64,000 nucleotides of DNA from an uncultured Bacillota bacterium (GCA_948466255.1 CAOJZV010000006.1:2521-66520); one strand, 5' to 3'. Shown: positions 22,003 to 62,535, counted from the stretch's first letter. Notes: generated from the sequence alone by a model not told the origin. Translations and numbers: made by a program.

Positions 22003-23027
22003 CCTAAATTGAAATTTCAACCGCACCAGTAAGGTGTGGTTTTTGATATAATAAAAGAGCCCCACCCGGCAAGGAGGACTCATATATGTATTATACACAA
22101 TTAACAGAAAAAAAGAAAGTAGAAATTGATATATTATTAAAACAAGGATTATCAATGAGAAAAGTAGCTTCGATACTTGGAATAAGCCATTCAACTATAT
22201 CTAGATACAAAGCAGGAGTATATAAAAAGAGAACAATAAATATAAAGGAAAAATATAAAATATTTATAGATTATTTGTATACTCATTATGATAGAAAAAC
22301 ATCATCTATAGAGGTATGTATATTTATGTTTAAAAAAAGATATCGTGGCGTGAAATGTCCATCAGTTAAACAAGTATACAATTGGATAAATGAAGGAAAA
22401 ATAAATATTGATAAAAATTATATGTGTTATAAAAGACGTAAAAATAAAATAAGAAACGGAATGATGTCACACACAAAATGGAATCTTGATAACAAAACAG
22501 TTTTACCAATAAGTTTAAGACCAAAATATATTAATAAGAGGGATGAACCAGGACATTTAGAAATAGATTCGATTTTAGGTAAAAAGAATGAACAGGCATC
22601 AATAATATCTATTGTAGATAGATGTACAAGAAGATTATGGCTTATAAAAGCAGAATACAAAAATGAATATTATATAAACAAATTAATATATGAATACATA
22701 ATAAAAAACGAAATAGAAACAAAATCAATAACGGTAGATAATGGATTAGAATTTCAAGCATTGGGAATAGCGGCAAAAAAATTGGGAGTAAAGTTATATA
22801 AGTGTGATCCATATTGTTCATTTCAAAGAGGAACAAATGAAAGAACCAATGCGTTGGTAAGAAGATTTATACCAAAAGGAGATACTATGAAAACAAAATC
22901 ACAGATATATTTAGATGATATTTGTTTTAATATAAATAGTATGCCTAGAAAAATATTTGACTTTAAATCATCTTTTGAGGTAGAATTAAATTATATTTAA
23001 AGTGGTGCGGTTGAAATTACAAAAAAG
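22003..23027 (+). mobile_element. IS30-family insertion sequence
   Basis: Single DDE transposase ORF. The 22-bp terminal inverted repeats are TTGAAATTTCAACCGCACCAGT (22009-22030) and the reverse complement of 23001-23022, with 2 mismatches. The element is flanked directly by 25-bp direct repeats. Confidence 0.85.
22086..23000 (+). CDS. IS30 family transposase
   Basis: N-terminal HTH (LKQGLSMRKVASILGISHSTISR) and a DDE domain (GHLEIDSILGK..., ITVDNGLEF, FQRGTNERTNALVRRFIPKG). Confidence 0.9.
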   Translation: MYYTQLTEKKKVEIDILLKQGLSMRKVASILGISHSTISRYKAGVYKKRTINIKEKYKIFIDYLYTHYDRKTSSIEVCIFMFKKRYRGVKCPSVKQVYNWINEGKINIDKNYMCYKRRKNKIRNGMMSHTKWNLDNKTVLPISLRPKYINKRDEPGHLEIDSILGKKNEQASIISIVDRCTRRLWLIKAEYKNEYYINKLIYEYIIKNEIETKSITVDNGLEFQALGIAAKKLGVKLYKCDPYCSFQRGTNERTNALVRRFIPKGDTMKTKSQIYLDDICFNINSMPRKIFDFKSSFEVELNYI

Positions 23028-24648: not shown

Positions 24649-24690
24649 GATATTATTGTAATAATTTAATTAATGTGTTATATTATATTT

Positions 24691-24793
24691 AGTGAGGAAA
24701 TTCCTCATAAAAAAGGGAAACATTGTAACATATCAATGTCTGCCTAAATTGTTTTTAGTAAGACACTTTGCTTATGCAAGGTGTCATTTTTTT
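24691..24793 (+). ncRNA. Putative antisense (antitoxin) sRNA, copy 1
   Basis: Promoter TTGTAA (24656-24661), 17 nt, TATATT (24679-24684). Terminator hairpin GACACTTTGC-TTAT-GCAAGGTGTC (24762-24785) followed by ATTTTTTT. It is complementary to the 3' UTR of the minus-strand peptide mRNA. The ends are predicted only. Confidence 0.35.
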
Positions 24794-24794
24794 A

Positions 24795-24878
24795 TTAATT
24801 AAGGCACTTCCAAAGAAGGCCAATCAACAAAATGATAATTACAAGCAATACTAGGATTATAAAATCTTTTTTTGTCAT
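24795..24878 (-). CDS. 27-aa hydrophobic peptide (candidate type I toxin), copy 1
   Basis: Translation: MTKKDFIILVLLVIIILLIGLLWKCLN. An AAGGAGGG SD sits 8 nt upstream and is half-buried in a CCTTTCAG/CTGAAAGG hairpin. Promoter TTGACC-17-TATATT on the minus strand (complement of 24958-24986). Confidence 0.45.
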   Translation of the reverse strand: MTKKDFIILVLLVIIILLIGLLWKCLN

Positions 24879-25195
24879 AATATCAAGCCCTCCTTTCAGG
24901 AACCCCCTGAAACTGAAAGGCAGACACCGATAGCGGTTAAAATGTTTCCGAGTAATTAATATAAACTAGTTATAAACAAAGGTCAAACAACAATTTTGGC
25001 ATTTTTGAAGCATTTTTTCATACAAAAAAACCAAATCTGTTATAGACAAATTTGGCAAATTCATAAGGTTTATTTCTTCAAAAAAGGAAAGTTGGTAGTT
25101 TTATTTATATTATGGAAATTTTATGAAAAGGTGGTTAGGTGGTGGAAAAAAGATAGTAAAAATGTTATAATGGATAAAGATAGGAGGCCTTTAAA

Positions 25196-26285
25196 ATGGA
25201 ATTTAAAGAACTATTAGTAATTTATAGTGATTATAAAAATAGAATAAATGATTTATGGAGGTCTCTTTGACTCTAATTCTAAACAAAAAAGAATGGATGA
25301 ATTAGATAAAATAATGAAGGAAGATAACTTTTGGAATGATAAAAGAAAAAGCGAAACAGTTATTTCTGAATATAATTATTTAAAAAAATTATTAGAAGAA
25401 ACTAGTAATTTGAAAGAAGAAATTGAATTTCATAATGATTCTTTAGGAAATTCTGAGCTTGAAAGTGACGAATCAAATTGGGCTTTAGATGAATATAAAA
25501 ATTTAGGCCAAAGATTAGATGAACTCGAACTTCAAATTTTACTTAGTGGACAGTATGATAAAAATGATGCGGTATTAGAAATACATTCAGGAGCAGGTGG
25601 AACTGAAGCTTGTGACTGGGCAAATATGCTTTATCGTATGTATACAAGATGGTGTGAAAAGAAAGGTTATAAGATAGAAGTTATTGATGAACAGCCTGGA
25701 ACTGAAGTTGGAATTAAAAGTGTTTCTTTAATTGTTAAAGGTCTTAATGCTTTTGGTTATCTTCAAGGTGAAAAGGGAATTCATAGGCTTGTTAGAATTT
25801 CACCGTTTGACAGCAATTCAAGAAGACATACTTCTTTTGCAGCGGTTGAGGTAACACCAGTAATAGATGATGATGCTGATCTTGAAATTGATGAAAAAGA
25901 TATTAGAGTAGATGTTTATCGTAGTTCTGGCGCAGGTGGACAGGGCGTTAATACAACCGATAGTGCAGTTAGGATAACACATTTACCAACAAAAATAATT
26001 GTTACGTGTCAAAATGAACGTAGTCAAATTCAAAATAAAGAAAAGTGTATGCAAATACTTAAAAGTAAATTATTGAAAATAAAAGCAGAAGAAAAGGAAG
26101 CTGAAATGAAAGAATTAAAAGGTGAATTAAAAGAAATTAATTTTGGCTCACAAATTAGAAGTTATGTTATGTGTCCATATACTTTAGTTAAAGATCATCG
26201 AACTAACGCTGAAGATGTTAATGTATCTAAAGTATTGGATGGGGATATAGATTTATTTATAAAAGAATATTTAAAGGAGAAGTAG
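25196..26285 (+). CDS. prfB: Peptide chain release factor 2, requires a programmed +1 frameshift at 25265-25271
   Basis: ORF0 ([24 protein letters not shown]) ends at CTT TGA C (25265-25271), preceded by the SD-like GGAGG (25257-25261). The +1 frame continues [12 protein letters not shown] and carries the SPF and GGQ motifs ([16 protein letters not shown]). Confidence 0.95.
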
Positions 26286-26287
26286 AT

Positions 26288-27166
26288 ATGCTACTAAAAA
26301 ATACTTTTGATGATAAAAAAATCGTTAAAGAAGTTTATAGTAATGATCGTTTAAAAAGATATACCTTATTTTTTCTAGGCGTTTTAATTCAGGCTATAGC
26401 TTTTAATGTATTTATTTTACCAAGCCATATGTCTTTTGGCGTCAGTGGTATTGCTGTCGTTTTAAAGCAATTAATTGGTGTTAATCCATCGTTTGTTATT
26501 TTGCTTGCTAATATACTTTTAGTAATTGCGAGTTTTGTTTATTTAGGAAAATCAGTAACAAGTAAAACTATTGTTGGTTCAATACTATATCCATTATTAG
26601 TTGAATTTACAGTATTTTTACCTGGGGTAATAAATTTGGGTGATACTGAGCCAGTTATTATTGCATTATCAGGAGCAGTATTATATGGTATTGGATGTGG
26701 CTTTGTATTTAAAACTGGATATACAACCGGGGGCTCTGATGTTTTAAAACAAATTATTTCACAATACGGAAAAAAATCAATGGGACAAGCAACATTATAT
26801 GTTGAGGGTTGCGTTGTTACATTATGTTTATTTGTGTTTGGTTGGCAAGCATTTATATATTCAATTATTTCTTTGTATGTAATTAGTGTTCTTACAGATA
26901 AAGTAATACTTGGAATATCAAAGTATAAGACTTTTCAAATTGTAACACATAAAGAAAAAGAGGTTAAACAATTTATTTTAAATCAATTACATCATGGTGT
27001 AACTATTTTAGAAAGTCATGGTGGATATACCGGGAAGGAAAAGAAAATAATTCTTTGTACAATTCCTACAAAAAGGTATTTCTTATTAAAAGAAGGTATT
27101 TTAAAAATTGACAATAAAGCATTCTTTATTGTTACAGATACCTATGAAGTTGAAGGCGGAGGATAG
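26288..27166 (+). CDS. YitT family membrane protein (DUF2179 C-terminal domain)
   Basis: 5-TM N-terminal part and a C-terminal GVTILESHGGYTGKEKKIILCTI module typical of YitT/YqfU proteins. Confidence 0.7.
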   Translation: MLLKNTFDDKKIVKEVYSNDRLKRYTLFFLGVLIQAIAFNVFILPSHMSFGVSGIAVVLKQLIGVNPSFVILLANILLVIASFVYLGKSVTSKTIVGSILYPLLVEFTVFLPGVINLGDTEPVIIALSGAVLYGIGCGFVFKTGYTTGGSDVLKQIISQYGKKSMGQATLYVEGCVVTLCLFVFGWQAFIYSIISLYVISVLTDKVILGISKYKTFQIVTHKEKEVKQFILNQLHHGVTILESHGGYTGKEKKIILCTIPTKRYFLLKEGILKIDNKAFFIVTDTYEVEGGG

Positions 27167-27181
27167 AAAGAAGGATGATTT

Positions 27182-27865
27182 ATGGAATTAATTAGATTAA
27201 CTAATGTTAAAAAAACATATAAAACTGGGGTAACTGCGATTCAGGATTTAAATTTATCTATTAATAAAGGTGAATTTGTATTTATTATAGGTTCAACTGG
27301 ATGTGGGAAGAGTACCCTTATAAAAATGCTTTATCGCGAGGAAAAACCAAACTCTGGTCAAATTATTGTTGGTGGAGTAGATGTTGGGAAATTAAGAAAT
27401 GGTAAGGTTTATAAAATAAGAAGAAAGATTGGGGTAGTATTTCAAGACTTTAAATTATTACCTAAATCTACTGTTTATGAAAATGTAGCTTTTGCTTTAG
27501 AAATTTTTGGTGTACCTAAGGCAGAAATTCATTCTAAAGTTGTTAAAGTTTTGGATCTTGTTGGACTTAAACATAAAATTAAAAGTTATCCTAATGAACT
27601 TTCGGGTGGAGAACAACAACGTGTAGCAATAGCTCGCGCGATTGTTAATGGACCTAAACTATTAATTTGTGATGAGCCTACAGGTAACTTAGATCCAAAT
27701 ACTAGTATGGAAATTATGAAAGTTTTAGAAGAAATTAATAAACTTGGAACAACTATAATTATGGTTACTCATAGTATTGATATTGTTAAGGAACTAAATA
27801 AAAGGGTTATTGTTTTAGACTCAGGAAGAGTACTTAAAGATTATGCAGAAGGGACGTATAGATAA
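27182..27865 (+). CDS. ftsE: Cell division ATP-binding protein FtsE
   Basis: Walker [13 protein letters not shown] signature LSGGEQQRV and Walker [13 protein letters not shown]. It lies directly upstream of ftsX. Confidence 0.9.
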
Positions 27866-28764
27866 TGAAGACATTTAGAATTATTGGAAGAAATTTTAGG
27901 GATGCCTTTAAAGGTGTATTTAGGAACTTTTCTTTATCACTTGCTTCAATATCATGTATTACAATAACCCTTATTGTTGTAGCTGTTTCAATTATACTTT
28001 CTTATAATGTTGATAATTTTACTAATTTAGTTGAAAAAGATGTTACGATTGTTTCATTTTTAGATAATGATTTAAGTGATGAAAAAATAGATGAAATTAA
28101 AGATCAAATTAGTGTAATTAATAATGTAGATAAATATGAATTTATTTCTAAAACAGATATTACTAAAGATATGATGGAATCTTCTGATGTTTTTGAAAGT
28201 ATTATGAAAAACTGGTCTGATGAAGAAAATCCAATTCAAAATACTTTCCAAGTTAAAGTTAAAAACATTGAAGATATTGACAATGTAGCAAAGGAAATTA
28301 AACAAATTGATGGTGTTACACTTGTTAAATATGGTGAAGGTATGGTTGAACAATTAATTTCTGTATTCGATATTGTTCATAAAGTTTGTGTAATTTCAGT
28401 AATTGCTTTAGTTTTAGTTACTGCCTTCTTAATTTCTAATACAATTAAAATTACAATTAATTCAAGGCAAAGAGAAATAAGTATTATGAGACTTATTGGG
28501 GCATCTAACTTAAATATTAGAATTCCATTTATTATTGAAGGTTTAATATTAGGTGCTTTAGGAGCCATTATTCCTATTATTGGAACTATTTATGGCTATA
28601 ATGCTCTTTATCATAATTTTAATGGACAATTATTCAGTCCATTCATTAAACTTATTCAACCTACACCTTTTGTATATACTATTTCATTAATTTTACTAGG
28701 AATTGGTATTTTAGTAGGTATGTTTGGCTCTTGGAGAGCTGTTAGAAAACACTTAAAGATTTAA
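27865..28764 (+). CDS. ftsX: Cell division permease-like protein FtsX
   Basis: 4-TM FtsX topology with a large extracellular loop. The start overlaps the ftsE stop. Confidence 0.85.
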   Translation: MKTFRIIGRNFRDAFKGVFRNFSLSLASISCITITLIVVAVSIILSYNVDNFTNLVEKDVTIVSFLDNDLSDEKIDEIKDQISVINNVDKYEFISKTDITKDMMESSDVFESIMKNWSDEENPIQNTFQVKVKNIEDIDNVAKEIKQIDGVTLVKYGEGMVEQLISVFDIVHKVCVISVIALVLVTAFLISNTIKITINSRQREISIMRLIGASNLNIRIPFIIEGLILGALGAIIPIIGTIYGYNALYHNFNGQLFSPFIKLIQPTPFVYTISLILLGIGILVGMFGSWRAVRKHLKI

Positions 28765-28783
28765 TTTATTTAAATCTTTTTTT
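28755..28783 (+). terminator. Intrinsic terminator after ftsX
   Basis: AAAGATTTAA / TTAAATCTTT 10-bp stem followed by a T-run. It overlaps the stop codon. Confidence 0.65.
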
Positions 28784-28844
28784 GTTATATAAAAGTAGCA
28801 AAAAAATGCGCACATCTTTTTACGAATTTTCTTCTTAAAAACAC

Positions 28845-28875
28845 TTGCCAAAACTAGGGGGGGGGGGGGTATAAT
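28845..28875 (+). promoter_or_regulatory. Promoter with a G13 homopolymer in its spacer (candidate phase-variable switch)
   Basis: TTGCCA (28845-28850), a 19-nt spacer AAACTA+G13 (G tract at 28857-28869), then TATAAT (28870-28875). A GGTGA SD and ATG 28903 follow. Confidence 0.6.
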
Positions 28876-28902
28876 ATATTTAAGATAAACCAAGGTGATA
28901 AA

Positions 28903-29766
28903 ATGAGAAGAAGAAAAAGAAGAAAACAAAGAAAAATAATAATAATATCAAGTTTAATATTATTATTTATAATAACCGTAGGATATGCAGCATTTCAAAC
29001 AAATATAAATATAACAGCTAAAGGGAATATAAAAGTATTATTTCAAAAAGTTAAATTTAAGACACAACTTTTAGAAAATAATACTTTTGAAAATGGAATT
29101 AGTAATTGGGATAAATACGGATGTAGCTCAGGAGGTTATGAAGTAAGTTCTACAGTTAAATATAATGGATATAATTCGATGCGAGTATTTGAAAATAGTG
29201 GCTCACAAGTTAGTTGTTGGAATGGGATAGCACAAAAATTAAATAGATCGTATGATACAACTAAAACATATGAGACATCGGCCTATGTTTATCGTGATTC
29301 AACTAGTACCTATGGTGATTTGAATAATAAAATAAGAATTTATCATAATATGCTTAAAGATGGTGCTTCTGTTTCAGGATGGCTTTATATGAATAATAGT
29401 AAGAGTAGTGCTATTGAAATTACTAAAAATAGGTTAATTGATAAAACTTGGGTATATATTGAGGATTTCAACAAGGGTATAATTTCTGGCGTAAAAGGGG
29501 ATGCAATTTGGGGATATAGATTTGATTATAGTGCAACGGCTGTAAGAGATTCAGCTAGTTCTGTATGGATTGCACTGCCTAAATTTTTTGAAGTTGAGGA
29601 AAAGGAAATAAGAAAATTTTCTAAAATAGGGCAATTACCAAGTGCAAATAAAGCAGGCTACACTTTTGCCGGTTGGTATACTGAAGAAAGTGGTGGAGAA
29701 AAAATTGATGAAAATTTTAAAGTGACTGAGGATATAATTTTATATGCTAGATTTACTAAAAATTAG
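28903..29766 (+). CDS. Secreted/surface protein: basic N-terminus plus signal-anchor, CBM-like central domain, C-terminal Listeria-Bacteroides (Flg_new) repeat
   Basis: MRRRKRRKQRK followed by a hydrophobic helix. The central NNTFENGISNWDKYG segment resembles CBM4/9-type sugar-binding modules. The C-terminus AGYTFAGWYTEESGGEKIDENFKVTEDIILYARF is the TIGR02543-type repeat. Confidence 0.65.
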   Translation: MRRRKRRKQRKIIIISSLILLFIITVGYAAFQTNINITAKGNIKVLFQKVKFKTQLLENNTFENGISNWDKYGCSSGGYEVSSTVKYNGYNSMRVFENSGSQVSCWNGIAQKLNRSYDTTKTYETSAYVYRDSTSTYGDLNNKIRIYHNMLKDGASVSGWLYMNNSKSSAIEITKNRLIDKTWVYIEDFNKGIISGVKGDAIWGYRFDYSATAVRDSASSVWIALPKFFEVEEKEIRKFSKIGQLPSANKAGYTFAGWYTEESGGEKIDENFKVTEDIILYARFTKN

Positions 29767-29778
29767 TAAATCTTTTTT
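29749..29778 (+). terminator. Intrinsic terminator of the surface-protein cassette
   Basis: AGATTTACTAA / TTAGTAAATCT 11-bp stem spanning the stop codon, followed by T6. Confidence 0.65.
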
Positions 29779-29823
29779 GTTATATTATTTTATTTTTATA
29801 CATATAATTACGTGGGTGATATT

Positions 29824-30606
29824 ATGGGATTTAATGTAGGAGATTTAGTTACGCGTAATTCTTATGGCAATGATGTGGTTTTTAGAATTACTGCTATAAA
29901 TGGGGATGATGTTATATTAAAAGGAATGAATATTAGACTTGTAGCAGATGCAGATATGTCTGATTTAAAAAAACATTCAAATGAGGATGTAGAAGATGAG
30001 CAGGAATTTTTAAGCAGGCTAGAAACTGTTCCTGATTTAAATCGTAATGATTATTTTTATTTACCAGGAAAAATTCTTCATATTGATAGCGATACGGATT
30101 ATTTAAAAAGGTGTTTAGATTATTATAAAAAAATAAATATTTGGGCAATGGGTATTAATGAAAAAGAAGATAGAATTGCTGATAACATAATAGATTTGCT
30201 TGAAGAATATAAACCAAATATTGTAGTTATTACTGGGCATGATGCTTATTATAAACGTAAAGGAAAACAAGATGATATTAATGCTTATAAAAGTAGTTCT
30301 TATTTTGCTGATGCAATTAAGAAAGCAAGAGAATATGAAGCTAGCCATGAAAAATTAATTATTATTGCAGGGGCTTGTGGATCATACTATGAAGAGTTAA
30401 TAAAATCAGGGGCTAATTTTGCCTCTAGTCCTAAAAGAGTTAATATTCACGCTTTAGACCCTGCAATTGTAGCCGCTAAAATGAGTTTATCTGATATAAA
30501 TAAAGATATTGATTTAAAAAGCATTTTAGAAAAAACTAAGTATGGTAAAGATGGTATTGGGGGAATTATTACGAAAGGAACAATGCATGTTGGATATCCT
30601 AGATAA
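29824..30606 (+). CDS. yabG: Sporulation-specific protease YabG (peptidase U57)
   Basis: VVITGHDAYYKRKG and IIAGACGSYYEELIKSGANFASSP, the conserved YabG blocks. A GTG at 29812 is an alternative start. Confidence 0.85.
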   Translation: MGFNVGDLVTRNSYGNDVVFRITAINGDDVILKGMNIRLVADADMSDLKKHSNEDVEDEQEFLSRLETVPDLNRNDYFYLPGKILHIDSDTDYLKRCLDYYKKINIWAMGINEKEDRIADNIIDLLEEYKPNIVVITGHDAYYKRKGKQDDINAYKSSSYFADAIKKAREYEASHEKLIIIAGACGSYYEELIKSGANFASSPKRVNIHALDPAIVAAKMSLSDINKDIDLKSILEKTKYGKDGIGGIITKGTMHVGYPR

Positions 30607-30625
30607 AGGTGTATGTGATAATAGT

Positions 30626-30835
30626 ATGATTAGAAAGGCTTTAAGTAGCTATATTGGTAAAGTGGTCACTATTAACTATAATTTAGGTAGAAATAAATAT
30701 GAGTCTTATAAAGCTGAAATAAAAAAATTATATAATCAAGTATTTTTAGTCGAGGTATTAGATGAAAATAAAAGCATAAAATCTTTCTCATATGCTGATA
30801 TTATTACAAAAACAATTAAAATTTTGGATAAATAG
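30626..30835 (+). CDS. veg: Veg protein (DUF1021)
   Basis: IGKVVTINYNLGRNKYESYKAEIKKLYNQVFLVEVLDENKSIKSFSYADIITKTIKI aligns with B. subtilis Veg (SYSYADILTETVEL). An alternative start at 30587 overlaps the yabG end. Confidence 0.8.
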   Translation: MIRKALSSYIGKVVTINYNLGRNKYESYKAEIKKLYNQVFLVEVLDENKSIKSFSYADIITKTIKILDK

Positions 30836-30901
30836 TTGTTTTTTCAGTAAAAATATTGTATACTGAAGATGTAATATAAGGTCCAGAAGGGAGAGGTTAA
30901 C

Positions 30902-31168
30902 TTGAAAATTACATCAGTAAACGTTAGAAAAATAGAAAAGGAAAATTCACGTATCCGTGGAATCGCATCTGTAGTTTTAGATGATTGCTTTGCTGTTCAC
31001 GGTATTAGAATCATTGAAGGGGATGCTGGATTATTTATCGCTATGCCTAGTCGTAAAACTACTAACGATGAATATCACGATATTGCACATCCAATAACAC
31101 AAGATTGCCGTAAAATGTTTGAAGATGCAATCACTGAAGAATATAATAATTTAAAAGAAGATGAATAG
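30902..31168 (+). CDS. spoVG: Septation/sporulation regulator SpoVG
   Basis: MKITSVNVRKIEKENSRIRGIASVVLDDCFAVHGIRIIEGDAGLFIAMPSRK is canonical SpoVG. The start is TTG, after a GGGAGAGG SD. Confidence 0.92.
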   Translation: MKITSVNVRKIEKENSRIRGIASVVLDDCFAVHGIRIIEGDAGLFIAMPSRKTTNDEYHDIAHPITQDCRKMFEDAITEEYNNLKEDE

Positions 31169-31209
31169 TCTTCTTTTTTCTTGCATATAATTTTCTAGGA
31201 GGGAACATT

Positions 31210-31497
31210 ATGGACAAGATGGATGCAATTTCTTCATTAACGCATTCTATTACGCTTAATGAAAGAAAAAATATAATTATAACAGGTGTTAAAAAAATTG
31301 ATAGTTTTGATGAAGATGAATTTTATTTGGAAACAACGATGGGGGACTTAATAATTAAAGGTGAAGAACTCGAAATAATTAAACTTGATACTTATCAAGG
31401 TAATGTTTCCATTAAAGGTAAAGTAGATAGTTTAAACTATACAGAAAATGGAAAAAAGGATAAGGAAAGCGGAGTATTTACAAAGTTATTTAAATAA
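31210..31497 (+). CDS. yabP: Sporulation protein YabP
   Basis: ITLNERKNIIITGVKKIDSFDEDEFYLETTMGDLIIKGEELEIIKLD matches the YabP family. Confidence 0.85.
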   Translation: MDKMDAISSLTHSITLNERKNIIITGVKKIDSFDEDEFYLETTMGDLIIKGEELEIIKLDTYQGNVSIKGKVDSLNYTENGKKDKESGVFTKLFK

Positions 31498-31769
31498 TGG
31501 ATTTATCTATTCAAATTATAACTTTGCTTTTTTCCTTTTTATTTGGAATCTTTTTTTCTTTATTTGTAGGTGTAAACTATAAAATTATTTATAATGATAA
31601 AAAATGGATAAAATTAATAGGAACTTTTCTAGTAGTATTGATTAGTATCCTTGTATATTTTGTTTTGCTTAGGAAAATAAATTATGCGGCTTTTCATCCT
31701 TATCTTTTACTTGCTATTGTTCTTGGTTATTACCTAGAGAAAATAATTGCCAATCATTTTAAAAAATGA
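31497..31769 (+). CDS. yabQ: Spore cortex biosynthesis protein YabQ
   Basis: 90-aa, 3-TM protein immediately after yabP with start/stop overlap. The call rests on position and topology. Confidence 0.65.
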   Translation: MDLSIQIITLLFSFLFGIFFSLFVGVNYKIIYNDKKWIKLIGTFLVVLISILVYFVLLRKINYAAFHPYLLLAIVLGYYLEKIIANHFKK

Positions 31770-31797
31770 TATACTTTTATTAGAATATGGTGATGAT

Positions 31798-32247
31798 ATG
31801 GCAAATAAAAAGATGAGTAAGTCGTCAAAAAGACGTTTAACGGTTATTACCCCAATTGTTATTTTAGCAATTGGGTATTGTGCATTTACTCTTATTACAA
31901 CTGCTATATCAATTTATAAGTTAAATGTTGAAGAGGCTGAATTAAAAGAAGAGCTTAATAATTTGAAAGGTGATTCTAAAGATTTAAAGAATGAAATAAA
32001 TAGATTACAAGATAAAGATTATGTAGCTAGATATGCAAGAGAAAATTATTTATATACTAGAGATGGTGAATATGTAATTAAGGCCCTTGATGAAGATGAA
32101 AAGAAAAAAGAAAATAAATTTGAAATTAAGGATGAATATATAATGGGCGGATGTATTTTATTAGGTACATTAGTATTGTTTTATATAATTTTGAAAGTTA
32201 AAAAAAGTAAGAAAAAGAAAAAACTTAAGAAGAAAAGAAAAAAGTAA
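31798..32247 (+). CDS. divIC: Septum formation initiator DivIC/FtsB family, with an extra C-terminal TM helix and polylysine tail
   Basis: N-terminal TM helix plus the coiled coil LNVEEAELKEELNNLKGDSKDLKNEINRLQDKDYVARYARENY. It sits in the syntenic position after yabQ. ATG 31798 follows a GGTGATGA SD. Confidence 0.75.
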   Translation: MANKKMSKSSKRRLTVITPIVILAIGYCAFTLITTAISIYKLNVEEAELKEELNNLKGDSKDLKNEINRLQDKDYVARYARENYLYTRDGEYVIKALDEDEKKKENKFEIKDEYIMGGCILLGTLVLFYIILKVKKSKKKKKLKKKRKK

Positions 32248-32487
32248 TATAAAAAATTTATATATTTACCAACTTTCCCTTTTTGTAGGTTAAAGTTTTA
32301 CAAATTTACCAAATTTGTCTATAACAGATTTGGTTTTTTGGTATGAAAAAGTGTTTCAAAAATGCTAAATTTGTCATTTGACCTTTATTTATAACTAGTT
32401 TATATTATTTTCTCGGAAACATTTGTAACCGCTGTCGGTGTCTACCTTTCATTTTTTCAGGGGGTTTCCTGAAAGGAGGGGTTTGGT

Positions 32488-32571
32488 ATGCTTACAAAAA
32501 AAGATTTTATAATCCTAGTACTGTTAGTTATTATCATTTTACTGATTATCCTTCTTTTAAAGAATGGGTAG
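32488..32571 (+). CDS. 27-aa hydrophobic peptide (candidate type I toxin), copy 2
   Basis: Translation: MLTKKDFIILVLLVIIILLIILLLKNG. The SD AAGGAGG (32473-32479) is partly paired in a CCTTTCA/TGAAAGG hairpin (32445-32451 with 32470-32476). Promoter TTGACC (32378-32383), 17 nt, TATATT (32401-32406). Confidence 0.45.
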   Translation: MLTKKDFIILVLLVIIILLIILLLKNG

Positions 32572-32574
32572 TTA

Positions 32575-32679
32575 ATAAAGAAAGACACCCCGCTTTAAGC
32601 AGAGTGTCTTTCTGGTCAAAAAACTAGGTAGACATTGATATGTTACAATGTTTCCTTTTTTATGAGGAATTCCCCCATT
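32575..32679 (-). ncRNA. Putative antisense (antitoxin) sRNA, copy 2
   Basis: Minus-strand promoter TTGTAA (complement of 32709-32714), 17 nt, TATATT (complement of 32686-32691). The AAAGACAC...GTGTCTTT hairpin (32581-32611) acts as a bidirectional terminator. The ends are predicted only. Confidence 0.35.
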
Positions 32680-32718
32680 AATTAAAATATATCATATTTG
32701 TTAAAATATTACAACATT

Positions 32719-60366: not shown

Positions 60367-61317
60367 TTATTTTAGTTCTAAGTAATACTCATTGTTAAAA
60401 TCATGATTAGTAGTATCTAAACTTAATAATTTATTAGTATCTATTAAGAAAAATTTGTGGAGTAGCATATTACTTTTATCACTGGTTACAGGGTCATCCC
60501 AAGTTAAATCTAAATGGAGCCATTTTCCGTTTAAATAAACTAAGTTCCATATGTGATTTATATTTGAAATTTTATAGTTTTTAATTCCCAAATCATCAAG
60601 AATTAATTTCATGGCATCACTATATCCGCTACAAAGGGCTTTACCTTCTAATAAAGGTCCGTTTGCTTTGTGTGAATTATATTTATAATTTGTGTCATCA
60701 CCCTTTTCTATTTGGGCAGCTCTTTCTTCATCATAAACCGAGTGATTAATTATGTAATCATGGAAGGCTTTGATTTTTTCTTCATCAGTCATACTATCCT
60801 TTATTACTTCGCATTTAATTTCTTCTAATTTTGTATTTATATTTTGAATATCTTCAGCGCTATATAATTTATCTAATGTGATAGTTGCTTTTCCATATGT
60901 ATTAGTTGTTACATATAATTTTTGATAGCTATTATATGGTGAGACCATATTATTAATGACTGATAAAAGTATTTGATCTTTTGAAATTTCTTTTAAATCA
61001 TTTAAACAATTATCATAGTCTTTTGAACAATAAAATGAATATGAATCTTTTCCAGAATTTAATATTGTATATATGGCATTTAAGATACCTTGTTTATCTT
61101 TTACGTGAAAATCATTTGTATTTTGAACAAAACTAAAATCAAAGCTTTTGGTATATTTGTTATCGTCTGGTTTATTTACTTTTGTATATTCGGTTACATT
61201 TTCCATAACAAAGGTTACGATTTCAGTCCTATAGAATATACATATAACCAATAGTATCAGAAGCATGATTGTTGATATATGGAATTTATAGTGCTTCATA
61301 TTATCACCTTTTTTCAC
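60367..61317 (-). CDS. Transglutaminase-like cysteine protease domain protein
   Basis: N-terminal signal-anchor, and the C-terminal core GKALCSGYSDAMKLILDDLGI...HIWNLVYLNGKWLHLDLTWDD (Cys-His-Asp). Confidence 0.75.
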   Translation of the reverse strand: MKKGDNMKHYKFHISTIMLLILLVICIFYRTEIVTFVMENVTEYTKVNKPDDNKYTKSFDFSFVQNTNDFHVKDKQGILNAIYTILNSGKDSYSFYCSKDYDNCLNDLKEISKDQILLSVINNMVSPYNSYQKLYVTTNTYGKATITLDKLYSAEDIQNINTKLEEIKCEVIKDSMTDEEKIKAFHDYIINHSVYDEERAAQIEKGDDTNYKYNSHKANGPLLEGKALCSGYSDAMKLILDDLGIKNYKISNINHIWNLVYLNGKWLHLDLTWDDPVTSDKSNMLLHKFFLIDTNKLLSLDTTNHDFNNEYYLELK

Positions 61318-61668
61318 TTTCTTTAATATGATATGTTTTTTTCTAATAAAATTATAACATAGTTTTTGTTCTTATAATATATACTTTTTATAATTTATTG
61401 AAAAGTATTTTACATATATATTTGTTATTAGATATAATGTGATATTTTTTTACAAATATTTAATATATTGTTGATTATTTTGCTTTACAAATTTACCAAA
61501 TTGGTAATTTTTTCTTACTAAAAGGGGAATTTGGTAAATTGTAACAAAAAAGAAGGAAATTGATGTACAAAAATTGTATATTTATTTGAAAGAGTATTTT
61601 TTATTCTTTCAAATGACAAGGGATTTCATATATAAAAGAATAAAGGAGGTATTAGAAGGAGGGAATAG

Positions 61669-62535
61669 ATGGCAAGAATTAAATGTATTGATAAAGATGG
61701 TAACATTTTTTATAAAGCAGGAGCAGATGGAATGTTTAAAACAATATTTGGCGATGAACAAGATAAAGAACTTTTAGAAAAGTTATTAGAAGTAACTTTA
61801 GATGAAAAAGTAAAAGTAGAAAGAATACTTAATCCTGGTATATTAAAAACCAATGTGAGAAGCAAAGATAAAACTTTAGATTTACTTGTAAGAGGTTCAG
61901 ATGATACTTTATATAATATAGAAGTAAACATGTCATATTATAAACATTTAAATAGGAGAAATGCCGCTTTTGTGTTTAGTAAATATTCAGAAGATTTAAA
62001 GGTAAGTGATTCATATACAAATATGAATAAAATAATTCAAATAAATTTAACTAGCGAATTATCTGAAGAAGGTGAATTAATAAATGAATATAAATTAATT
62101 GATGAGAATACTAAAAAAGAATACATTGATAATTTTGTAATATATGAATTTAACTTGGATAAGTTAAAGGAAGTATGTTATAATAAAGATGAATTTGGAA
62201 AGTATAAAATATTAGTTTCACTTATATGTGATGATGTTGAACTGCATGATATATGTAGAGGAGATAAACTCTTAGAGAAACTCGAAAGGAAGGTTATAGA
62301 TATGAATAAAGATCCTGAATTTATAGAATTTATGAGTGAAGAAGAGGAAATGGAAAAGCTTCAAAAAACATTGATGGAAAATGCCAGAGAAGAAGGAACT
62401 CTTCAAGGGATTGAACAAGGTTCAAAAGAAAAACAATTACAAATTGCCAAAAATATGCTTGCAAAAAATATGGATATTGATTTAATATCAGAAGTTACTA
62501 ATTTATCAAAAGAAGAGATTGAAACTTTAAAATAG
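61669..62535 (+). CDS. Rpn family recombination-promoting nuclease / putative transposase (PDDEXK_2)
   Basis: N-terminus DGMFKTIFGDEQDKELLEKLLEVTL and DLLVRGSDDTLYNIEVN (D...E.K core). The C-terminal repeat region is EGIEQGSKEKQLQIAKNMLAKNMDIDLISEVTNLSKEEIE. Confidence 0.7.
   Translation: MARIKCIDKDGNIFYKAGADGMFKTIFGDEQDKELLEKLLEVTLDEKVKVERILNPGILKTNVRSKDKTLDLLVRGSDDTLYNIEVNMSYYKHLNRRNAAFVFSKYSEDLKVSDSYTNMNKIIQINLTSELSEEGELINEYKLIDENTKKEYIDNFVIYEFNLDKLKEVCYNKDEFGKYKILVSLICDDVELHDICRGDKLLEKLERKVIDMNKDPEFIEFMSEEEEMEKLQKTLMENAREEGTLQGIEQGSKEKQLQIAKNMLAKNMDIDLISEVTNLSKEEIETLK

Follow-up and report, generated by a model that had tools for sequence, protein, structure and literature searches.

Inverted intergenic repeats around a prfB-divIC block of an uncultured Bacillota bacterium as candidate type I toxin-antitoxin-like cassettes

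In a 64,000-nucleotide (nt) stretch of DNA from an uncultured Bacillota bacterium (GCA_948466255.1 CAOJZV010000006.1:2521-66520; hereafter the window), two diverged copies of an intergenic module lie in inverted orientation around 7.2 kb of division and sporulation genes that extend from prfB to divIC. A first-pass annotation had noticed the pair and suggested that the module is mobile or duplicative, or that the block between the two arms could invert. We propose that each arm is a chromosomal cassette of the type I toxin-antitoxin kind and that the arms are old paralogues that happen to lie inverted around the prfB-divIC block, a reading that we hold to be highly probable. The cassette, which had not been recognised as such in the first reading, is predicted to specify the mRNA of a small peptide together with a cis-antisense RNA. 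To judge from the comparisons below, on which its support rests, it represents an undescribed family of a known kind, with a layout like that of bsrG/SR4 of Bacillus subtilis.

Arm A (24656-25097, plus strand) is the reverse complement of arm B (32267-32714), with 82.4% identity over 455 alignment columns that include 20 gap columns (blastn, E=2.8e-122), or 85.7% when gaps are left aside, and the claim of inverted, diverged copies is thus borne out by formal alignment. Collinear inverted blocks between the arms, which were also aligned with MAFFT, are 78-91% identical, and the longest perfect runs common to both measure 31, 27 and 26 nt. This similarity far exceeds what AT-rich composition yields by chance, although the G+C content of the window is 28%. 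No third full copy of the module was found in the 64-kb window by blastn. Each arm has kept the parts ascribed to it by the first-pass annotation, namely two promoter-like sites, three hairpins and a 27-codon open reading frame (ORF). The enclosed genes are also those that had been named: on the identical contig L001 (loci and contigs compared with the window are cited by L number), Pfam identifies PCRF/RF-1, YitT_membrane, ABC_tran, FtsX, CBM_4_9/Flg_new, Peptidase_U57 (YabG), VEG, SpoVG, YabP and DivIC between the arms, while the ORF in the yabQ position, which carries no Pfam annotation on L001, was identified by tblastn to relatives only.

Read in the sense of the ORF, which is the minus strand in arm A and the plus strand in arm B, each arm begins with a hairpin and T-run (T0), followed by a promoter-like TTGACC-17-TATATT and, about 7 nt further on, by a 31-32-nt 5' segment (GGAAACAUU...GUCUGCC). 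Next come a hairpin that pairs an anti-Shine-Dalgarno sequence with the Shine-Dalgarno sequence (SD), CCUUUCAG...CUGAAAGGAGGG, the ORF, an A-run with a G+C-rich hairpin behind it, a 30-nt complement of the 5' segment and a U-run. On the opposite strand, the unit ends with a convergent promoter-like TTGTAA-17-TATATT with a TG extension. The features, with the evidence for each in brackets, are these:

24656..25097, minus strand (peptide sense): arm A, the whole duplicated unit (blastn against arm B; orthologous copy at the same site in L010)
25030..25056, minus strand: T0 of arm A, intrinsic-terminator-like hairpin and T-run upstream of the peptide-gene promoter (terminator scan; common to arms A and B only)
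24958..24986, minus strand: P_tox A, promoter-like site for the peptide mRNA, TTGACC-17-TATATT (position kept in 17 of 19 copies)
24919..24949, minus strand: 5' arm of the long-distance helix of arm A, the extreme 5' end of the predicted mRNA, GGAAACAUUUUAACCGCUAUCGGUGUCUGCC (minimum free energy (MFE) fold, z=-7.2; duplex energy; covariation)
24886..24920, minus strand: anti-SD/SD hairpin of arm A, CCUUUCAG...CUGAAAGGAGGG, with the SD at 24888-24893 (folds; compensatory variant in L010)
24795..24878, minus strand: 27-codon ORF of arm A, MTKKDFIILVLLVIIILLIGLLWKCLN (ORF call; family of about 25 peptides; codon-position variability)
24715..24744, minus strand: 3' arm of the long-distance helix of arm A, followed by the U-run at 24709-24714 and the predicted 3' end of the peptide mRNA (folds, duplex energy, covariation)
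24656..24684, plus strand: P_as A, convergent promoter-like site, TTGTAA-17-TATATT with TG extension (near-consensus in 15 of 20 copies)
24691..24793, plus strand: predicted antisense (antitoxin) RNA of arm A, about 103 nt, three stem-loops, with a terminator hairpin at 24762-24785 and then T7 (terminator scan, fold, stem covariation)
32267..32714, plus strand (peptide sense): arm B, the paralogous unit (blastn; site empty, at 56-123 nt, in six related species)
32308..32334, plus strand: T0 of arm B, hairpin and T-run directly downstream of divIC (terminator scan)
32378..32406, plus strand: P_tox B, TTGACC-17-TATATT (promoter-like site)
32415..32446, plus strand: 5' arm of the long-distance helix of arm B (fold, z=-5.8; G:C to A:U compensatory change relative to arm A)
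32488..32571, plus strand: 27-codon ORF of arm B, MLTKKDFIILVLLVIIILLIILLLKNG (ORF call; peptide profile)
32627..32655, plus strand: 3' arm of the long-distance helix of arm B, then the U-run (folds, duplex energy)
32572..32679, minus strand: predicted antisense RNA of arm B, about 109 nt, with its terminator hairpin within 32579-32613 (fold; compensatory changes in the terminator stem relative to arm A)
32686..32714, minus strand: P_as B, TTGTAA-17-TATATT with TG extension (promoter-like site)

The predicted peptide mRNA starts at the 5' arm and measures about 245 nt, and in the 20 extracted copies the U-run directly follows the 3' arm. The G+C-rich hairpin behind the ORF has a T-run on the antisense strand only and, since an A-run lies 5' of it in all rows of the transcript alignment, it is predicted to terminate the antisense strand alone. 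The terminator of the antisense RNA adjoins the stop codon, and the overlap with the 3' region of the mRNA comes to about 85 nt and includes the 3' arm of the long helix, the complement of 3' arm A forming the central stem-loop of the antisense RNA. Homology between the two arms reaches about 110 nt upstream of the peptide promoter, taking in T0 and a 56-nt internal direct repeat. This upstream stretch is missing from L010 and from most other copies; it may be the original duplication unit or reflect gene conversion between the paralogues. T0 was considered as a family-wide insulator and rejected, as only L032, L092 and L099 have an upstream hairpin besides arms A and B. In arm B, T0 doubles as the divIC terminator.

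About 30 further copies of the cassette occur in related gut metagenome-assembled genomes (MAGs) and in metagenomes. In some 25 copies the peptide has 24-29 amino acids (aa), with a short charged N-terminus (M-x-K-K-D) followed by 17-20 consecutive hydrophobic residues. Over the first 16 aligned codons, variability at the three codon positions is 0.20/0.05/0.23, position 2 being almost invariably T, a pattern that marks, in these alignments, selection for a hydrophobic helix that is translated. Six-frame ORFs searched with a peptide profile yielded one diverged cassette, in L032 (MTKKDFLISSLIIIIFLLIILLFR), and another, decayed, in L020, and a profile built from the 20 extracted transcripts retrieved more copies in L034 (10696-10924) and L041; the related MAG loci with cassettes are L010, L020, L032, L034 and L041. 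A relaxed codon-aware DNA pattern matched 16 metagenome contigs (JGI), where 17 of 17 matches encode an M-x-KKD[FL]LI hydrophobic peptide with an SD before the ORF. The same pattern had no match in IMG/VR, and a first, stricter version had none in either the JGI metagenomes or IMG/VR. Tandem arrays of 2-3 cassettes with a period of about 350 nt are present in L091, L092, L095 and L096. The contigs that carry cassettes all have 23-31% G+C. Those with sufficiently long flanks show core genes next to the cassette: rbfA|truB, queA, an M50 site-2 protease, uppP/bacA, a sigma factor, a PCRF-domain release factor, a response regulator and ABC transporters.

Searches with the module against plasmid and phage collections (BLAST) gave no match, nor did the 26-mer of the 3' arm against IMG/VR. 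The exact SD-hairpin pattern had 0 matches in 185,579 species-representative genomes, among which the species and the exact motif are not represented, and its sole IMG/VR match (L009) is a chance match in a high-GC phage. Literal peptide strings were absent from the literature searched, and no prior report of the peptide family or of a matching RNA family was found in the libraries and literature searched. To our knowledge, gene callers miss ORFs of 24-29 codons. A small ORF at L034:9366-9430 (MNWKDFLILSLLIITFFIIINF), which lacks arms and promoters, is a doubtful member of the family and was excluded. In two contexts the cassette sits directly 5' of a release-factor gene and is divergent to it, namely prfB (window 24656-25270; L010:5680-6222) and a PCRF-domain gene (L034:10696-11347); this adjacency in two unrelated contexts may be coincidence. 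L020 also carries, at 22-141 at the start of the contig, an ORF fragment that ends ...NLLVHND and resembles an intein C-terminal motif.

The mRNA is predicted to fold back on itself through a long-range 5'-3' helix of about 30 bp, with the SD held in a local stem (z=-7.2 in arm A and -5.8 in arm B against dinucleotide shuffles). Duplexes between cognate 5' and 3' arms reach -33 to -38 kcal/mol (-38 in arm A), as against -7 to -25 when the arms of diverged copies are mixed and -10±3 when arms are shuffled. The five most diverged copies have only 16-27 of about 38 arm positions in common, yet their cognate duplex energies are still kept. Long-distance pairs are found in all 20 extracted transcripts (14-29 in each), and RNAalifold, applied to a plain MAFFT alignment, independently recovered both the 5'-3' helix and the antisense terminator hairpin. 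Changes on both sides occur at 13 of 26 pairs, compared with 4.8±1.6 in shuffles, the share of paired cells is 93.3% versus 87.1±0.6, and the covariation score is 0.318 versus 0.189±0.012, values that in each case none of 500 shuffles reached; the sequences in this set are related to each other, which is mitigated by slid controls, where moving the partner by 1-3 columns leaves 32-46% paired. The stem of the antisense terminator co-varies too. The MFE fold pairs the SD in every one of the 19 copies where it can be recognised (mean probability of being unpaired 0.09), and the anti-SD/SD variant of L010, CCUAUUU/AAAUAGG, is fully compensated. The promoter-like sites are positioned to match: on the ORF strand, 5-8 nt separate the end of the -10 element from the 5' arm in 17 of 19 copies, and the convergent promoter is near-consensus, mostly TG-extended and 20-27 nt past the U-run in 15 of 20.

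Cognate duplexes between antisense RNA and mRNA have predicted energies of -140 and -157 kcal/mol, compared with -95 for the antisense RNA of arm A on the mRNA of arm B (asA-toxB) and -91 for the reverse combination (asB-toxA). When the overlap is blocked in silico, the probability that the SD is unpaired falls from 0.18 to 0.004 in arm A and from 0.23 to 0.014 in arm B, through a longer anti-SD stem. The generic features of type I systems that lend themselves to analysis in silico are thus present at the sequence level: an ORF under coding selection for a small (<60 aa), hydrophobic peptide that would span the membrane, a predicted cis-encoded antisense RNA with its own promoter and terminator that pairs with the toxin mRNA, and a toxin mRNA structure that sequesters the SD.

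By analogy with bsrG/SR4, the long helix would hide the 5' end of the mRNA and keep the message stable but poorly translated. The antisense RNA would invade the 3' arm, of which it is the perfect complement and hence a likeness of the mRNA's own 5' end, displace the 5' arm and create a long duplex for cleavage by RNase III. In arms A and B, the freed 5' arm would then refold and lengthen the anti-SD stem, so that the antisense RNA would block both stability and translation of a message for a putative membrane-damaging peptide. It was tempting to suppose that antisense binding always tightens the SD stem, but this is only partly true. Since the SD is buried in both states across the family and three copies behave in the opposite way, promotion of decay and exposure of the 5' end would be the more general effect, with translational tightening specific to certain copies. 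The cassette itself would spread by local and dispersed duplication, and we see no specific functional link between it and the genes enclosed in the window.

Several points weigh against this reading. The promoters, transcript ends and the antisense RNA are all predicted, and toxicity of the peptide and its neutralisation by the RNA are putative, argued by analogy. The sequences behind the covariation analysis are akin, and the shuffles therefore make them look more independent than they are. A tighter SD stem on antisense binding is predicted for arms A and B and for about half of the family, the family mean being 0.09 versus 0.08, and L102, L099 and L105 show the opposite change when the overlap is blocked. 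The peptide finds no toxin-family match in Pfam or NCBIfam at E<=10, only noise, and the RNAs find none in Rfam at gathering thresholds, with only noise at E<=10 (e.g. PyrR at 27.8 bits versus a gathering score of 54). Finally, L104 and L105 seem to be without an antisense promoter and L020 is without an obvious start codon; thus, some copies may be decaying, or the system may tolerate losing one partner.

The copies L104:4027-4249 and L105:2296-2516 are close to L098:1080-1302. Their best convergent site scores 7 and is misplaced, compared with TTGTAA-17-TACTAT in L098, while the peptide ORF is kept; the antisense promoter was possibly lost through a short deletion.

How does the cassette compare with known type I systems? 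BsrG has 38 aa and the bsrG locus lies in a prophage-like region, whereas the peptides here are shorter (24-29 aa) and their loci sit in core intergenic regions of reduced-genome gut Bacilli. The likeness lies in the architecture. In both cases the genes are convergent, the antisense RNA covers the 3' part of the mRNA of a small hydrophobic peptide, a helix of about 30 bp joins the first ~35 nt to the 3' region, a short stem beside this helix encloses the SD, and the antisense RNA targets, among other parts, the helix's 3' arm; a longer SD stem on binding is also predicted in arms A and B. Helix P1 of bsrG mRNA joins nt 1-35 to nt 232-262, a 4-bp stem holds the SD, and SR4 overlaps the 3' region of bsrG, reaches the 3' arm of P1, leaves nt 1-33 single-stranded, extends the SD stem to 8 bp and triggers decay by RNase III (PMC3834814). 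Antisense RNAs that overlap on the 3' side are the Gram-positive layout, as in TxpA/RatA, BsrE-G-H, YonT and SprG/SprF (T1TAdb summary, PMC8594479). The cassettes accordingly show the architecture of the BsrE-G-H/as-Bsr group, with a 5'-3' helix, an SD stem next to it and an antisense RNA that overlaps the mRNA on its 3' side as far as the 3' arm, but no sequence homology to it, either in the peptide (Pfam, NCBIfam at E<=10) or in the RNA (Rfam, none above chance). They differ further in that the U-run directly follows the long helix, while bsrG has a separate terminator stem-loop, SL4, and in that the antisense RNA is about 105 nt long rather than the ~180 nt of SR4 by construct numbering (PMC3834814).

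With the par locus (Fst/RNA II) of Enterococcus and other Firmicutes, the cassettes have in common convergent promoters, a 5' stem-loop that hides the SD, a helix that sequesters the 5' end of the toxin RNA, a charged K/D N-terminus followed by a hydrophobic helix, and chromosomal copies between core genes (PMC7472228). However, par uses direct repeats, DRa and DRb, with an antitoxin complementary to the start of toxin translation, and a shared bidirectional terminator (PMC7472228), whereas the hairpin behind the ORF here terminates the antisense strand only and the repeats are inverted (24716-24745 and 24918-24949 on opposite strands by blastn). The antisense RNA therefore resembles the 5' end of the mRNA instead of complementing it, and a par-like pairing of the antisense RNA with the translation start through direct repeats was rejected. 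Nor is the PXXXG motif of Fst present: no family peptide contains a proline, and Pfam gives no match at E<=10, including to any Fst model that it contains. The long-distance 5'-3' lock on a full-length toxin mRNA with a sequestered SD also recalls hok/Sok of enterobacteria and aapA1/IsoA1 of Helicobacter pylori, but in these the antitoxin pairs with the 5' untranslated region (UTR) and 3' processing activates the message (PMC5416894). In the cassettes, the predicted antisense gene is placed past the end of the ORF, opposite the 3' end of the mRNA, and its RNA would be directed at the 3' arm rather than at the 5' UTR. Finally, the E. coli LDR (ldr/Rdl) and Sib/Ibs loci, with units of about 0.3-0.5 kb, are likewise diverged, repeated intergenic units, often in tandem, that proved to be type I loci, although they belong to a different phylum, their antisense RNAs lie fully inside the mRNA and their peptides are unrelated. 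These repeat loci go back to Kawano et al., and tandem repeats as a search criterion to Fozo et al., in both cases by the account given in later papers that cite them (PMC5416894 and PMC8594479, respectively).

A more daring scenario is that a single helix does three jobs in the cassette: the long-range helix, with the U-run directly behind it, would terminate the toxin mRNA, shield its 5' end and serve as the only target of the antitoxin, which would mimic the mRNA 5' end and act by strand displacement. If true, the toxin gene would need its own 5' end in order to terminate, a regulatory logic for which bsrG, par, hok and aapA offer no described precedent; we regard this extension as conceivable but unlikely.

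Exact matches to the YutD-like protein of the window come solely from metagenome contigs (ENA, Logan), on which the gene order is also the same. When species-representative genomes were scanned for synteny around YabG, 80 loci emerged; every one belongs to an uncultured low-GC "Bacilli"/"Tenericutes" gut MAG, Candidatus Coprosoma among them, and the best reaches 89% YabG identity. As had been advised, related genomes were searched for copies; the search did reveal further ones in many contexts, but the two sites themselves hold no more than short spacers in close relatives. The DivIC-LemA spacer, which holds arm B and measures 472 nt here, is 56-123 nt long in L012, L015, L016, L017, L018 and L023, and arm B is confined to the window species among those sampled. 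The YutD-PrfB spacer measures 600 nt here and 153-206 nt in L017, L021 and L030, and the arm A site is occupied only in L010 among the relatives mapped. The L010 copy is 85% identical to arm A and the flanking genes 84.5-84.9%; being as diverged as its flanks, it is the orthologue of arm A, which is hence old and vertically inherited. Judged from these comparisons, both arms are old insertions or duplications.

An ORF for an IS30-like transposase (HTH_38 and a weak rve match) lies at 22086-23000, 1.6 kb upstream of arm A, and is also present in the same-species contigs L001-L004. In L027, L028, L029, L030 and L033, some segments of the region have changed their orientation to each other as compared with the window; in L029 and L030, for instance, both flanks, ftsEX-prfB and lemA-gerQ, are reversed with respect to yabG-divIC. 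The region thus does rearrange within the clade, at breakpoints other than the arms of the window.

Alternatively, the cassette may encode a harmless small membrane protein, perhaps one that serves housekeeping or sporulation, and a cis-antisense RNA would set its dosage. Purifying selection for the hydrophobicity of the peptide, the core-gene setting with two positions beside release-factor genes, the lack of homology to proven toxins and the apparent survival of L104 and L105 without an antisense promoter would all suit such a protein. However, variable copy number, tandem arrays, presence or absence in close species and lineage-specific sites are what type I toxin loci typically show, unlike a conserved housekeeping gene. 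Moreover, repression in several layers, with a buried SD, a 5'-3' fold-back and a dedicated antisense RNA, is a hallmark of toxic peptides, and we find it rather improbable that the peptide is harmless.

It is far harder to see the arms as non-autonomous mobile elements resembling miniature inverted-repeat transposable elements, with the ORF and hairpins as incidental passengers, or as recombination arms that flip the 7.2-kb prfB-divIC block as a genome switch. A mobile element would agree with a discrete unit of about 330-440 bp that some species have and others lack at a given site, and with the IS30-like gene near arm A. Yet a reading of the arm boundaries found no terminal inverted repeats, target-site duplications or adjacent recombinase there, and the boundaries coincide with promoter hexamers. 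The window has two copies only, at 82% identity, arm A has diverged from its L010 orthologue no more than the flanking genes have, the internal sequence is under RNA-structure and coding constraints, and the module is absent from plasmid, phage and IMG/VR collections. Of the original suggestion that the module is mobile or duplicative, the second half therefore stands, given the empty sites in relatives, the other intergenic contexts and the tandem arrays, while mobility as a transposable element finds no support and seems to us very improbable. Inversion of the block, which the first-pass annotation had entertained but thought less likely, fares no better. Inverted repeats do flank a defined block, and other lineages of the clade (L027-L030, L033) show inversions in this region, but with different breakpoints. 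An identity of 82% with perfect runs of at most 31, 27 and 26 nt, and the lack of an invertase or recombinase gene adjoining either arm, speak against a switch. The arrangement of the window recurs across arm A in three independent assemblies of the species, from different samples, with L001 spanning both arms, and L015 and L017, which are without the module, have the same gene order and orientation across the block, so the present configuration is ancestral. Since the arms are in addition independent functional cassettes by prediction, found singly elsewhere, nothing in the sequences compared points to inversion, and we take a genome switch to be extremely improbable.

The preferred reading, two type I toxin-antitoxin-like cassettes, would thus explain the inverted repeat that brackets essential division and sporulation genes: it would consist of two selfish or regulatory peptide/antisense units, with no need for a genome switch or a transposon. 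It would also add a type I toxin-antitoxin-like family of about 30 members, with strong covariation support, in uncultured reduced-genome gut Bacilli ("Tenericutes"/Bacilli MAGs). That a fold-back like that of bsrG/SR4 recurs without sequence homology suggests a general solution among Gram-positive type I systems, for which the family offers a compact set of natural variants to test the fold-back design.

Three other features of the window deserve mention. A G13 homopolymer (28857-28869) falls exactly in the spacer of a promoter-like site, TTGCCA-AAACTA-G13-TATAAT (28845-28877), just upstream of the CBM_4_9/Flg_new surface-protein gene (28903-29766). Its length varies among same-species contigs, with G14 in L001 and L003 and G13 in L002, and the tract looks like a case of slipped-strand phase variation of promoter spacing. 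The prfB gene has a canonical programmed +1 frameshift site, GGAGG TCT CTT TGA C (25196-25275), and for this reason appears as the overlapping ORFs 25196-25270 and 25248-26285. Lastly, the recurrence of a 19-nt piece of the module near 61484, reported by the first-pass annotation, is real but marginal: 22 nt match at 95% (61484-61505, E=6e-4), and only to the T0 part of arm B, which lies outside the family-wide cassette. A second weak match in the comparison of this region covers 55 nt at 76% (blastn, E=5e-5). The recurrence forms part of an inverted repeat at 61484-61545, TTTACCAAATT...AATTTGGTAAA, between a transglutaminase-like gene (60367-61317, minus strand) and a gene of the PD-(D/E)XK 'transposase' family (61669-62535, plus strand). 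With 19-22 nt in common with T0 of arm B only, this repeat may be a hairpin or an operator, its similarity to T0 being perhaps due to chance.

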